A stretch of 17,568 bases of DNA, taken from positions 110,771-128,338 of IMG/VR virus record IMGVR_UViG_2974624538_000001. One strand, given 5' to 3'. The notes beneath the pieces were generated by a model that was given only the letters and a program-made list of their open reading frames with translations, was not told the origin of the DNA and ran no database searches. A program made the translations under genes and the position numbers. This stretch comes from a virus (taxonomy: Duplodnaviria > Heunggongvirae > Uroviricota > Caudoviricetes). Numbering within the stretch: the stretch's first letter is position 1; every line of letters begins with the position of its first letter. This document shows positions 5,879 through 7,145 of this stretch, piece after piece.

Positions 5879-6076
5879 ATGAAGAAGTCAACGCTCTTTA
5901 CGACCGAAGCTGTACTGTCATTCTTTATGTTCTTCCCCAATGCCATTGTGTCTGTTCGATACATGGTTGAAAGGGATGTTGTTGATGCAAGCAGTACCGC
6001 TTTTGCTGGTGTCGGTCTGTTCTTCCTTGTTCTGTTTGGTCTTCTGGCGATTGATGCTAAGAACGCTGGACAGTGA
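5879..6076 (+). CDS. Small two-pass membrane protein, 65 aa (MKKSTLFTTE...)
   Basis: AAAGGAG SD before ATG 5879, within track ORF 5792-6076. Confidence 0.75.
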   Translation: MKKSTLFTTEAVLSFFMFFPNAIVSVRYMVERDVVDASSTAFAGVGLFFLVLFGLLAIDAKNAGQ

Positions 6077-6131
6077 TTTGACAGGCAGGCGAGAGTCTGC
6101 CAAGCTTGTAACACAACGAAGGGATGGCAAT

Positions 6132-6263
6132 ATGAGGATGCTCGGTAAGCGTGGTCAGCCGTTCTGTGGTAGCAAGTGCTGTGGTGAGAAGCGGGCAAAG
6201 AAGGCTCATACCCGCCGCATGAAGCGCAGGGAGCGCGGTTCCCGCGCGTGGCGTAGCTTCTAG
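6132..6263 (+). CDS. Very basic 43-aa peptide with CxxxCC (MRMLGKRGQPFCGSKCCGEKRAKKAHTRRMKRRERGSRAWRSF)
   Basis: Follows hairpin-AAGCTT 6084-6107 and a GAAGGGA SD; 3' part of track ORF 5940-6263. Confidence 0.68.
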   Translation: MRMLGKRGQPFCGSKCCGEKRAKKAHTRRMKRRERGSRAWRSF

Positions 6264-6274
6264 AAAATCGGGGG

Positions 6275-6303
6275 TTGACAGAAAAACCTCCTAGCTGTAA
6301 GGT
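6275..6303 (+). promoter_or_regulatory. Promoter TTGACA-17-TAAGGT driving the non-coding locus
   Basis: Exact -35; the downstream CCAACGCAAG is shared with the promoter at 7120-7148. Confidence 0.8.
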
Positions 6304-6309
6304 AATACC

Positions 6310-6665
6310 AACGCAAGACGGTGAGGGAAGGCGCACTAAGTCTCCCGACCCTCACCAAGCTTGGAACGAAAGTTCCTCCCAAGACGCCTGATGACCCCCG
6401 GATTACGGCTCTTTGTTTCTAGAGCTTAGATGACCGTAACATCGGTTGCAAACGATAAAGGGGTGAGGGGTGCGCTATAGTGAAAATGGCAAACACACTC
6501 GGAAGAGGGGTTCCGGTTCGAATCCGGATAGCGTACTGGTGTGGGATACCATAAAATCCCAATAATCAATAAAATATAGGTCGAATTGCCTCTTGGTAAT
6601 GAGTCCGTGGGTAAGAGTCCGTTGCGAGCGGAACGAATGGCAACCTACTGCGGCTAACCTATATA
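6310..6665 (+). ncRNA. Candidate multi-domain structured non-coding transcript
   Basis: No SD-led + strand ORF for ~390 nt after a strong promoter. Nested stems at 6320-6356, 6363-6376, 6395-6463 and 6574-6663 flank a tRNA-like unit. Confidence 0.55.
6470..6536 (+). tRNA. tRNA-like RNA lacking a normal anticodon arm (pseudo-tRNA, no anticodon)
   Basis: Acceptor (G)TGCGCTA/TAGCGTA(C); U8-A9; D arm GTG-AAAATGGCAAA-CAC; CTC-GGAA-GAG in place of the anticodon arm; T arm TCCGG-TTCGAAT-CCGGA; no encoded CCA. Confidence 0.75.
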
Positions 6666-6693
6666 CAATATCAATCAAACTACAGGGGTTGAA

Positions 6694-6948
6694 ATGTTCA
6701 GAAAGAAGCCTTGGCAAGACACTGACATTACTGGATGGAGATATTCCATCAAGCCTGGTGATAGTAAGAATTCCTGGCGGGTTTGGATTACCGACCCGGA
6801 AGGAAATCAGTACGGAAGTCACTTCGGCCTTCTGAGCTACTGCACGTATAATTCACGAACCCTTGAAAAGGCTGAAGCCAAGGTAGTAGATTCAATTAAG
6901 AAGACTGCGTATGAGCAGACGACGCTTGTTTCCGTAACCATTCTCTGA
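6694..6948 (+). CDS. Hypothetical protein, 84 aa
   Basis: AGGGG SD; compact ORF with plausible composition. Confidence 0.75.
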   Translation: MFRKKPWQDTDITGWRYSIKPGDSKNSWRVWITDPEGNQYGSHFGLLSYCTYNSRTLEKAEAKVVDSIKKTAYEQTTLVSVTIL

Positions 6949-6962
6949 AAGGACTACCAACC

Positions 6963-7145
6963 ATGATGATGATTCCCGCTCCCCGTGTCGAGTCGTTCCC
7001 GTGCCGTGAGACGGGCTGTGATGGCTTCTACGTGCCTTACAGCGATGGTCTGATGGTTTGCTACGACGGACACGTTTCTAGCCTCTCTGTGGACGACGTA
7101 GACCTTCCGGTCGGTGCTCTTGTGCCTGTCCTGGAAGAGTGCTAA
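6963..7145 (+). CDS. Hypothetical protein, 60 aa, possible Zn ribbon (CxxxxC...CxxxH)
   Basis: AAAGGA SD; CRETGC and CYDGH. Confidence 0.72.
   Translation: MMMIPAPRVESFPCRETGCDGFYVPYSDGLMVCYDGHVSSLSVDDVDLPVGALVPVLEEC

Follow-up and report, generated by a model that had tools for sequence, protein, structure and literature searches.

What would a phage keep a tRNA-shaped RNA for, if that RNA has no anticodon? The question is raised by a locus in the 17,568-nt stretch of DNA analysed here (the window), which is the right arm of a 128-kb Gilsonvirus-like genome of a large lytic Streptomyces phage. The genome also encodes 35 normal tRNAs, with canonical tRNA-Cys and tRNA-His among these, plus a tmRNA. 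A few systems are known to have non-decoding look-alikes of tRNAs, among them mascRNA, Y RNAs, tmRNA and the ends of plant viruses.

Structure of the tRNA-like element

The original prediction had described a tRNA-like fold in which a 10-nt hairpin takes the place of the anticodon arm, and each of the features it described is indeed present in the sequence (Table 1). The acceptor stem, the UUCGAAU T loop and the GG of the D loop (elbow) agree with the tRNA model RF00005. Where this model has a 5-bp anticodon stem, a 7-nt loop, U33 and an anticodon, the element has a 3-bp stem and a GGAA tetraloop. As threshold for membership in the tRNA family we took the Rfam gathering score of 29 bits or an ARAGORN call. 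ARAGORN called no tRNA gene in the window, where an undetermined or pseudo call had been expected, and the Rfam search of the window returned nothing at gathering score and no RF00005 match even at E<=10. The element is non-decoding. As a 68-nt sequence it folds with z = -2.5, and only 3 out of 200 shuffles folded equally well.

The register of the acceptor stem is ambiguous from the sequence: G6470:C6536 is either a G-1:C73 pair above a stem of 7 bp or the outermost pair of a stem of 8 bp, in which case U6537 is the discriminator; ARAGORN draws the relatives in the latter way. The former would suit a chargeable RNA that decodes nothing, namely a substrate of HisRS through G-1:C73 (or of CysRS with U73) carrying an amino acid for non-ribosomal use; HisRS can charge minihelices that lack an anticodon. 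The top pair is G:C in all 13 aligned homologues (Gilsonvirus, Faust, Wilnyevirus, Wakandavirus and Ankus type), and the extra C at the RNA joint described below suggests access of a CCA-adding enzyme. However, G-1:C73 as an identity of the tRNA-His type is not conserved across the family: C:G with A:U below it is found in Sham, TunaTartare, Blueeyedbeauty and one UViG (Annadreamyvirus/TunaTartare type). Moreover, the phage's own tRNA-His gene has a U at -1, so that G-1 is not encoded, a joined or leader-bearing RNA would be without the usual free acceptor end, and neither a synthetase nor a transferase gene was found among the neighbouring annotated genes. In view of the C:G pair and the tRNA-His gene, the HisRS reading raised at the outset is not supported, and we regard a chargeable RNA as a most improbable explanation.

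Table 1. Features of the locus and variants of its middle arm; positions refer to the window.
Feature	Position	Strand	Remarks
Promoter-like site (inferred)	6275..6303	+	TTGACA (6275-6280), 17-nt spacer, TAAGGT (6298-6303)
5' leader hairpin GGUGAGGG/CCCUCACC	6320-27/6349-56, within 6320..6376	+	stem covaries between genera
AAGCUU	6357-62	+	directly after the 5' leader hairpin
Small hairpin GGAAC-GAAA-GUUCC	6363-76	+	after AAGCUU
Leader domain	6385..6469	+	Pa, K-turn-like motif, Pb, three-way junction
Helix Pa	6387-89 with 6467-69	+	continues into the acceptor 5' strand without single-stranded gap
K-turn-like motif	bulge 6390-92; G6393.A6466, A6394.G6465, C6395.U6464	+	
Helix Pb	6396-99 with 6460-63	+	
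P2	6403-08/6434-39	+	arm of the three-way junction, bears the variable P3 hairpin
P4	6441-44/6453-56	+	arm of the three-way junction, loop GUUGCAAA
tRNA-like module	6470..6536	+	8-bp acceptor, D arm, 10-nt GNRA-capped mini-hairpin replacing the anticodon arm, 4-nt variable region, canonical T arm
Acceptor stem	6470-6477 with 6529-6536	+	8 bp: G6470:C6536, then UGCGCUA/UAGCGUA, one G.U
U6478, A6479	directly 3' of the acceptor 5' strand	+	
D stem	GUG 6480-82 with CAC 6494-96	+	D loop with GG at 6488-89
Mini-hairpin CUC-GGAA-GAG	6498..6507 (CUC 6498-6500, GGAA 6501-04, GAG 6505-07)	+	hypervariable 'anticodon arm' position
Arm with GUAA loop	6498..6507		Karp, Comrade, Stigma, Kenrey, UViG
Arm of 5 bp + UAUUUU	6498..6507		MeganTheeKilla, Forrest
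Arm of 6 bp + 8-nt loop	6498..6507		Faust
Arm of ~29 nt	6498..6507		Moab, Patelgo
Arm of 15 nt	6498..6507		a UViG
Arm of 15 nt with GCA or GUA	6498..6507		Wilnyevirus, Wakandavirus, Ankus
Arm absent	6498..6507		TunaTartare, a UViG
Variable region GGGU	6508-11	+	
T arm	UCCGG 6512-16, UUCGAAU 6517-23, CCGGA 6524-28	+	
Downstream hairpin UGGGAU-ACCAUAAA-AUCCCA	6542..6561	+	outside the contig RNA species
83-nt structured module	6578..6660	+	downstream of the unit in the window, upstream of it in Karp-type phages

Conservation of the unit and turnover of the middle arm

The allele of the window is neither a private deletion nor an assembly error, since relatives and a metagenome UViG share it. The same 10-nt arm is present in Phredrick, Karp, Comrade, Stigma, Kenrey and this UViG as well as, judged by 96% identity, in SparkleGoddess and Belfort; with a GGAA or GUAA loop, the allele was found in at least eight Gilsonvirus phages and one metagenome contig, which also establishes its conservation in related phages. 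Throughout the Loccivirinae, compensatory changes preserve the acceptor, T and D parts, and the arm ranges from absent to about 29 nt. Among 13 distinct homologues compared over 30 pairs, 99.2% of the cells are paired and 6 pairs have changed on both sides; none of 500 shuffles reached the level of the homologues, and slid controls were paired at 31-44%. Changes in the 30-nt leader, the acceptor and the T part are either absent or compensated, the middle has been exchanged in each lineage, and no part of the locus is better conserved than the leader. That the element is under selection rather than decaying, as had been suspected, is borne out by these compensatory changes next to an anticodon arm that turns over freely. 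On the other hand, the GNRA cap from which selection had been deduced is not supported as the selected feature itself, because other lineages have UAUUUU, ACUUAAGC or CGCAA-type loops or miss the arm altogether.

Reduced homologues (46-54 bits) occur in Sham, TunaTartare, Blueeyedbeauty and one UViG, in which only the K-turn hairpin and the tRNA-like part are kept. According to our own sequence comparison, four of the eight pairs of their acceptor differ on both sides and all are still paired. An IMG/VR pattern search for the reduced form added one new member only, and a metagenome scan with a 15-nt leader word was discarded, as every one of its 120 loci was a chance match. The unit is present once per genome according to the covariance model, and BLAST located it at a single place per record in 25 of 25 Streptomyces phage records.

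In several relatives the homologous locus is annotated in GenBank, as 'tRNA-OTHER' in Karp (gene 245) and Belfort (246), both of which have the allele of the window, and in MeganTheeKilla (250), and as 'tRNA-Cys' in BillNye, Circinus, Wakanda and Muntaha. The RF00005 scores of relatives lie between 44.5 bits (Circinus) and 23.3 bits (MeganTheeKilla), Faust and Ankus giving no tRNA match; in an Rfam tRNA search of the genomes of five relatives, the locus was absent from the best 150 matches listed. The window copy shares locus and common descent with annotated tRNAs (RF00005), but is without an anticodon loop. Even the relatives that were called tRNAs are unusual: the copies of BillNye, called tRNA-Cys(GCA), and Ankus, called tRNA-Tyr(GUA), have C33, G.A at 27:43 and an 8-bp acceptor, and both genomes also have canonical Cys and Tyr tRNAs. 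In tallies of decoding tRNAs, GenBank entries labelled 'tRNA-Cys' or 'tRNA-OTHER' at this locus should be left out.

This raises the question if the locus could be a decaying pseudogene, i.e. a second tRNA-Cys-like gene that lost its anticodon arm and drifts without function. The fuller copies of sister genera, called tRNA-Cys or tRNA-Tyr by ARAGORN with 32-44 bits in Rfam, belong to a graded series that ends in no Rfam match in the window, and the T stem of one UViG contains a C.A mismatch. However, the stem substitutions are compensatory, T loop, GG and leader have stayed constant, and the arm is swapped for new hairpins rather than eroding; furthermore, the unit persists in at least five genera and has a conserved promoter-like site of its own, joined in some genera by a terminator. 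A pseudogene is very unlikely on these grounds. The 31-codon frame that opens at GTG 6470 and the ORF at 6475-6822 on the minus strand were both rejected as coding sequences, since the arm differs between relatives by lengths not divisible by 3 and none of the annotations has a CDS at this place. An attP or integration site was likewise rejected, given that both tRNA halves are present and the phage family is lytic.

A K-turn-like leader domain

The helices of the leader domain covary and are 96-100% paired. The GA/GA pairs do not vary in any of the 13 aligned homologues nor, as judged by eye, in the four reduced ones, and the sequence pattern of a K-turn (stem, 3-nt bulge, tandem G.A/A.G, non-Watson-Crick 3b.3n, second stem) was found in 17 of 17 homologues. 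Within this frame the bulge varies (GAU, GGU, GUU, UUU or AAU) and the 4b-4n pair covaries between C-G and A-U. From this pattern we infer that the motif is a K-turn. An L7Ae-family gene was looked for in the phage genome and none was found. The 153-nt unit as a whole folds no more stably than its shuffles (z = -0.9). Two things are retained by selection: the top half of a tRNA, made up of the acceptor, the T arm and the D-loop GG that forms the elbow, and the K-turn-like motif, the helix of which is stacked directly on the acceptor 5' strand.

The hexamers of the promoter-like site upstream are kept in Moab, Faust, Wakanda and Muntaha (TTGACA/TTGACT and TAAGGT/TAAAGT/TAATAT), with a diverging spacer. 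A sigma-70 consensus scan did not call this site, because its -10 element matches TATAAT at 3 of 6 positions only.

Other readings of the leader were rejected. The CUGAUGA at 6388-94, reminiscent of a hammerhead, occurs only in the Gilsonvirus/Annadreamyvirus type (GGUGA, GUUGA or UUUGA in others); UGA or CGA stands where GAA is due, and there is no GAAA box, no stem I and no Rfam match. For the P4 loop UUGCAA, a pairing with the loop of the D arm or of the mini-hairpin showed no covariation and is broken by the GGAA of the window. A leader-trailer duplex as RNase III site did not pair consistently in the window and Karp, and the word TTYCTCYYARGAC at the 5' end, considered as a repeated promoter or processing word, is unique in the genome.

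RNA contigs from soil and the proposed processing

In two soil metatranscriptome runs of a single study we found a 183-nt contig (153 + 30) forming a closed cycle at k = 31, in which 6536 is followed by one untemplated C and then by 6385. Its depth is 17 and 34, compared with 7-10 in the flanking contigs, such assembled contigs giving no ends, strand or abundance. No contig continues beyond 6536, and the upstream contig ends 7 nt inside the unit. A third run of this study contains the core, whereas RNA runs X17 and X6 do not cover 6433-6514; X6 resembles DNA and has a linear Faust-type allele. Neither IMG/VR nor a collection of 50,697 phage genomes contains the 6536-C-6385 junction. A contig cycle whose junction is missing from both points to a stable RNA that includes the leader and ends at tRNA position 73; a joint at C6536 fits a cut after this position. 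Going by its assembled sequence this RNA species may be circular, the contigs of the one study hinting that its two ends are joined.

The closed cycle could also have arisen without circular RNA, through a tandem DNA duplication in a soil phage or a template switch at the ends of an abundant linear RNA. Two sightings of a junction are enough to close a de Bruijn graph, and a junction in a few percent of molecules, be it a minor circle or a reverse-transcriptase template switch, would close it just as a tandem DNA copy would; both runs come from one study, and RNA libraries can carry DNA contamination. On the other hand, no sequenced relative has two copies, neither DNA collection contains the junction, and the linear contigs do not connect into the cycle. 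Furthermore, the joint lies exactly at tRNA position 73 and 2 nt before Pa, which are neighbours in the fold. We consider such an origin of the cycle quite possible, if short of an even chance. Two RNA ends are still defined even where the cycle is read as an artefact.

A processing tag had been proposed as well, from which host RNase P and RNase Z would excise a 67-70-nt CCA-tailed mini-RNA, comparable to mascRNA and plant t-elements, and thereby set the ends of the flanking RNA. The acceptor/T minihelix and the elbow, which are the features measured by RNase P and RNase Z, are intact, and the 3' side of the RNA joint is exactly at position 73. In vivo, RNase P cleaves the YrlA of M. smegmatis, which also acquires CCA (Chen et al. 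2014, PMC4201824). In the phage RNA, however, the only species seen, which has the highest depth, retains an 85-nt leader joined to the tRNA-like part, and helix Pa extends the acceptor 5' strand without a single-stranded gap. The degree of conservation of this leader is also unlike that of ordinary pre-tRNA leaders. These observations argue against the expected short RNase P product, and a processing tag appears clearly improbable.

In the reading that we favour, the element forms the tRNA-shaped 3' part of a Loccivirinae ncRNA of about 150 nt, which has a promoter of its own and would be trimmed by the host, C-tailed and, in some molecules, joined at its ends, to act as a tRNA-mimic decoy or adaptor; our estimate for this is roughly 0.45, i.e. 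slightly less than even. Enabled by the tRNA-like top half, host tRNA 3'-end enzymes would cut after position 73 (C6536; RNase Z-type) and add C or CC, and the stacked leader helix would prevent leader removal by RNase P. The product would be a discrete RNA of 6385-6536 plus the added C, the ends of which would be adjacent at the helix junction and could be joined in at least some molecules. A candidate for the sealing enzyme is the 215-aa RNA ligase encoded by the phage (PF09414, PHROG 548; Rnl2 family). RtcB and a CCA-adding enzyme were looked for among the phage genes and neither is encoded, so the host would have to supply both. The finished RNA might then be an exonuclease-resistant tRNA mimic that serves as decoy or adaptor for a tRNA-binding factor. 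The strictest form of this proposal is a covalently closed tRNA mimic of about 153 nt, produced by an RNase Z cut, addition of one or two C and sealing to the 5' end at the K-turn/acceptor junction, possibly by the phage Rnl2-family ligase, and acting as exonuclease-proof decoy or adaptor for a tRNA-binding host factor; we put it forward tentatively, as its odds are well below even.

Relation to known RNAs

The mascRNA of MALAT1 and the MEN-beta element, each located 3'-terminally in a longer ncRNA, fold into a cloverleaf whose acceptor/T/D top half is normal and whose anticodon arm is shrunken. Elements of this type are eukaryotic, released by RNase P and handled by tRNA end-processing enzymes and the CCA-adding enzyme. 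The phage RNA shares with mascRNA (RF01684) the tRNA top half, the reduced arm and the 3' position in a longer ncRNA, but its leader is retained in the sole RNA species seen and a K-turn-like helix adjoins the acceptor. RF01684 gave no match on the window, and three relatives scored 20-23 bits against a gathering score of 42.5 bits.

The YrlA-class Y RNAs (RF02553), which occur in bacteria and phages and are ligands of Ro60/Rsr, are likewise non-decoding, with tRNA-like T arm, D arm and acceptor, and this phage encodes Ro60 (at 68.9-70.5 kb of the genome; the element is at 117.2 kb). Unlike YrlA, the phage element has an open acceptor and an anticodon position closed by a short hairpin. RF02553 gave no match at the locus at E<=10, weak YrlA-like matches being situated about 48 kb away beside Ro60, and no Ro-binding helix or GNCGAA motif was recognised in the element.

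Ligated 5' and 3' ends are known from the circles of permuted tRNA genes (Cyanidioschyzon), from tRNA-intron circles and from engineered ribozyme/RtcB circles. The permuted-tRNA and intron circles are eukaryotic or archaeal, and ends are generated by splicing endonuclease or ribozymes. The phage RNA resembles these as a tRNA-related RNA with possibly ligated ends; it differs in that its gene is not permuted and that joining is hinted at by contigs only. Rfam identified no ribozyme in the window. The best Rfam match was the Streptococcus sRNA SpF41 (RF02435). In its consensus, too, an acceptor-like stem encloses a short hairpin in the middle and a GGUUCGAAUCC T arm, with another hairpin on the 3' side; the score of 23.6 bits (E = 0.25) is below the gathering score of 52, and the element does not belong to this family. 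Our searches of the literature on phage tRNA-like RNAs, circular RNA and RNA ligases, cluster BE and SpF41 turned up no account of the phage RNA.

A tRNA look-alike, fused to a K-turn-like domain, is kept under clear structural selection by an entire subfamily of large Streptomyces phages. If our proposal is correct, these phages would borrow the tRNA-trimming and CCA-adding enzymes of the host to make a stable, perhaps circular, RNA. A closed RNA would represent a natural route of a bacterial virus to circular RNA through the tRNA end-processing machinery. As Comrade and Karp are culturable SEA-PHAGES isolates (S. griseus, S. viridochromogenes), the system would then offer a tractable model for tRNA-shaped decoys in infection and counter-defence.

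Flanking structures

The hairpin region at 6320..6376 is upstream of the 5' end of the contig RNA species. On the other side of the unit, the stem of the downstream hairpin covaries (GGGAU/AUCCC, GAGGU/ACCUC, GAGAU/AUCUC) and its loop does not vary in Gilsonvirus and Faust. The place of this hairpin is taken by a GC-rich terminator hairpin in Wilnyevirus and Wakandavirus. Exact matches to 6578-6660 were found with differing flanks in contigs of three studies, and this stretch is probably a separate RNA module.

tRNA-like element and its versions in related phages

The right arm studied here (110,771-128,338) belongs to a phage genome of 128,338 bp bounded by short terminal repeats, 86-96% identical to the Streptomyces phages Comrade, Karp and Stigma (Stanwilliamsviridae, Loccivirinae, Gilsonvirus). 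The original prediction of a tRNA-like RNA with a mini-hairpin in place of the anticodon arm described the structure accurately: every arm is present in the window sequence (see table), and the 68-nt fold is better than those of 197 out of 200 shuffles (z = -2.5). ARAGORN, proposed then as a check, called no tRNA in the whole window. Rfam gave no match there at gathering score and, at E<=10, none to the tRNA model; the sole match was a weak one to the Streptococcus sRNA SpF41 (23.6 bits, with 52 needed). Without an ARAGORN call or an Rfam tRNA match, membership of the tRNAs was rejected. The element is dispensable for decoding, because the genome carries 35 ordinary tRNA genes, including canonical tRNA-Cys(GCA) and tRNA-His, plus a tmRNA.

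BLAST with window 6440-6580 found one place per record in 25 Streptomyces phage records. The 10-nt arm of the window recurs, with the same GGAA loop in Phredrick and with a GUAA loop in Karp, Comrade, Stigma, Kenrey and one metagenome virus record (UViG). The anticodon position holds 5 bp and UAUUUU in MeganTheeKilla, Forrest and Jada (ARAGORN call 'tRNA-?(tt)'), 6 bp with an 8-nt loop in Faust, about 29 nt in Moab and Patelgo, 15 nt in a second UViG, and a 15-nt arm called tRNA-Cys(GCA) in BillNye, Circinus, Wakanda and Muntaha. Ankus and Byblos share the latter arm with GUA: at their loci (L012/L013, about 660-670) the pseudo-anticodon is GUA versus GCA in Circinus and Muntaha, the rest of the arm being identical, and this single difference flips the ARAGORN call from Cys to Tyr. 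Both versions are atypical (8-bp acceptor, C33 instead of U33, G.A at 27:43), and the phages concerned also have canonical tRNA-Cys and tRNA-Tyr in their main array. True phage tRNAs score 53-59 bits against the Rfam tRNA model, the homologues 44.5, 44.0, 39.8, 37.6, 32.5, 29.7 and 23.3 bits; Faust and Ankus, like the window, give no match to it. A literature search found no published description of this RNA, only GenBank labels, which at the homologous locus read tRNA-OTHER (e.g. the 10-nt-arm copies of Karp and Belfort) or tRNA-Cys.

In Phredrick (L017, 694-1133) an HNH endonuclease gene begins 2 nt past the element, in place of the downstream hairpin, and the last acceptor bases have changed from UAC to CGC with pairing kept. 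The element's 3' edge resembles a hot spot for insertions.

Covariation

In an alignment of 13 distinct units (A2), 30 pairs in six helices were tested. Pairing was found in 99.2% of cells, and six pairs had changed on both sides; none of 500 shuffles reached the observed values, and sliding the partners by 1-3 columns lowered pairing to 31-44%. For example, acceptor pair 5 is G-C or A-U, acceptor pair 8 A-U, G-C or G-U, T-stem pair 1 U-A, C-G or G-U, and T-stem pair 3 C-G, G-C or A-U; the only mismatch occurs in one UViG. T loop and D-loop GG persist throughout. The family thus maintains its elbow and its acceptor/T stack, and the anticodon position turns over in length and sequence. With compensatory stem changes of this kind, the element is under selection rather than decaying, as had been proposed; that it is a pseudogene is highly improbable in view of the covariation.

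Leader domain and gene layout

The entire intergenic region aligns as one unit among the relatives, and the 30 nt preceding G6470 vary little or not at all from genus to genus, with neighbouring DNA only 73-80% identical. The consensus promoter tool made no call at the promoter-like site. The 128-kb genome has 90 copies of AAGCTT; the one listed below follows a covarying hairpin, and the next feature is an RNA gene, not a coding gene.

Features of the RNA gene in the window
Feature	Position	Remarks
Promoter-like TTGACA-17-TAAGGT	6275-6303	hexamers conserved, spacer diverged
Covarying hairpin, then AAGCUU	6357-6362 (AAGCUU)	upstream of leader domain
Leader domain	6385-6469	between AAGCUU hairpin and tRNA-like part
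Helix Pa	6387-89 with 6467-69	
Asymmetric loop		between Pa and Pb
Helix Pb	6396-99 with 6460-63	
Three-way junction with P2/P3 and P4		beyond Pb
tRNA-like part	6470-6536	
Acceptor helix, 8 bp	G6470:C6536 (top pair)	atop UGCGCUA/UAGCGUA
U8-A9 equivalents	U6478, A6479	after acceptor 5' strand
D stem, 3 bp	6488-89 (GG)	GG in loop
A26		between D arm and mini-hairpin
Mini-hairpin CUC-GGAA-GAG	6498-6507	anticodon-arm position
Variable region, 4 bases		after mini-hairpin
T arm UCCGG-UUCGAAU-CCGGA		perfect
Covarying hairpin, downstream	6542-61	Gilsonvirus and Faust
GC-rich terminator hairpin		downstream of tRNA-like part, in place of 6542-61 hairpin; Wilnyevirus and Wakandavirus

Judging from its sequence pattern, the asymmetric loop probably forms a K-turn. 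It carries the corresponding signature: a variable 3-nt bulge (GAU, GGU, GUU, UUU), invariant G.A and A.G pairs (G6393.A6466 and A6394.G6465), a non-Watson-Crick 3b.3n pair (C.U, C.C or U.G) and a following helix whose first pair covaries C-G/A-U. Since the 3' strand of Pa runs directly into the 5' strand of the acceptor, stacking of the two helices is expected. In all 13 aligned sequences the P4 loop reads GUUGCAAA; DekoNeimoidia has AUUGCAAG there.

RNA contigs

Contigs of four RNA-type runs were compared with window 5900-7100. Two soil metatranscriptome runs, both from one study, each contain a 183-nt contig of the Karp-type allele that spans 6385-6536 and then returns to 6385 with one extra C. 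Its first and last 30 nt are identical, so that it represents a closed 153-nt cycle in the k = 31 graph; its depth is 17 and 34 versus 7-10 for flanking contigs, although contigs give no certain abundance or strand. In both runs no contig passes from 6536 into the conserved downstream hairpin, and the upstream contig ends 7 nt into the unit. A third run of this study also contains the core. In a probable DNA run, the Faust allele continues linearly through the 3' end, as expected of DNA.

The contigs show that molecules with 6536(+C) joined to 6385 exist, and they suggest a discrete RNA with these ends that retains the leader. Excision of the element from a transcript as a processing tag, as first envisaged, is possible but disfavoured by this retention, and we consider it unlikely. 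The cycle is no proof of a circle: a minor joined fraction, a template switch at the ends of an abundant linear RNA or a tandem DNA copy in the soil phage concerned would produce an identical graph. That the joined form is something other than a true circle has roughly one chance in three. The junction was found neither in IMG/VR (exact 20-mer; pattern with a 0-12-nt linker) nor among 50,697 phage genomes, and the unit is single-copy in every sequenced relative.

Measured from the elbow, the 3' side of the joint lies exactly at tRNA position 73, and the extra C is untemplated (U6537 in all relatives). RNase Z cleavage with subsequent partial CCA addition would give this pattern. The 5' side is 2 nt ahead of helix Pa; in the folded RNA the two ends are therefore opposite one another at the Pa/acceptor junction.

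A structured 83-nt module (GGUCGAAUUGCC...GGCUAACC; 6578-6660) lies downstream of the unit in the window; Karp-type phages have it upstream of the unit, and in a UViG it follows the unit by 7 nt. Three different studies yielded contigs that match exactly this stretch but have unrelated flanks. Its behaviour is that of an independent RNA module subject to shuffling.

Reduced homologues

With a covariance model built from the unit (R1), we found one copy in the phage's own genome and diverged copies in Sham, TunaTartare and Blueeyedbeauty (46-54 bits); a pattern scan added one further UViG copy. These reduced copies are missing the three-way junction, and a GAAA-type loop sits directly on their K-turn-like motif. 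Their acceptor differs (a C:G top pair, then AGCCCCA/UGGGGUU) with all its pairs intact. As 'anticodon arm', Sham has a pseudo-Phe(AAA) hairpin and Blueeyedbeauty an 8-nt loop; TunaTartare and the UViG have no such arm. Because only these parts are retained, the family comes down to a constant core of K-turn-like motif and tRNA top half.

Across the family, the top pair does not stay G:C. The original prediction had read G6470-C6536 as a mimic of the G-1:C73 identity element of HisRS; this was not supported, since some members of the family have C:G there and the phage's own tRNA-His(GUG) gene (G000:C1:75508-75582 of its full genome) has U, not G, at -1 opposite C73. Charging with His or Cys is accordingly highly improbable.

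Proposed maturation and phage-encoded proteins

The locus is a conserved, structured, single-copy RNA gene whose tRNA-like half is unable to decode and whose anticodon position is free to vary. We take it to encode a functional, non-decoding tRNA-like RNA module (probability about 0.85). The data point to an RNA product of some 153 nt in which the leader is retained, the 3' end falls at position 73 plus C, and the two ends can be joined. In a fuller scheme, RNase Z and the CCA-adding enzyme would set the 3' end, the stacked leader helix would block RNase P, a ligase would seal the two ends, and the finished ~153-nt RNA would serve as a stable tRNA mimic towards some tRNA-binding partner; this scheme as a whole is tentative, at slightly less than even odds.

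The phage encodes a 215-aa Rnl2-family RNA ligase (G000:C1:102455-103102; L142:1396-2043) that comprises the RNA-ligase nucleotidyltransferase domain only (PF09414; PHROG 548 'RNA ligase'), and a Ro60/TROVE gene (539-aa frame, 68.9-70.5 kb, within G000:C1:66850-70500). The ligase is a candidate for the sealing step. Two weak YrlA-like matches, at 30.8 and 27.4 bits and so under the gathering score, lie inside the tRNA array, immediately upstream of Ro60 and ~48 kb from the element. RtcB, a CCA-adding enzyme and L7Ae are not encoded in the phage genome.

In its working the element is closest to mascRNA, likewise a tRNA-like module at the 3' end whose anticodon arm has shrunk, and to the YrlA Y RNAs with their tRNA-like domains. 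Membership of mascRNA, YrlA, SpF41 or hammerhead failed in each test (Rfam scores/matches). So far as could be judged, fusion to a K-turn-like motif and joined ends are peculiar to this family.

As to the ordinary phage tRNAs, the base after the discriminator is C in all 35 ARAGORN calls, and full CCA is encoded in only two genes. Several genes abut directly (e.g. 74546-74768), so that cleavage at the 5' end of the following tRNA would yield N73-C74. The tRNA-His gene ends in CCC immediately before tRNA-Cys, and in its D stem, GCAU/AUGC, it is similar to the Wilnyevirus-type tRNA-like copies.
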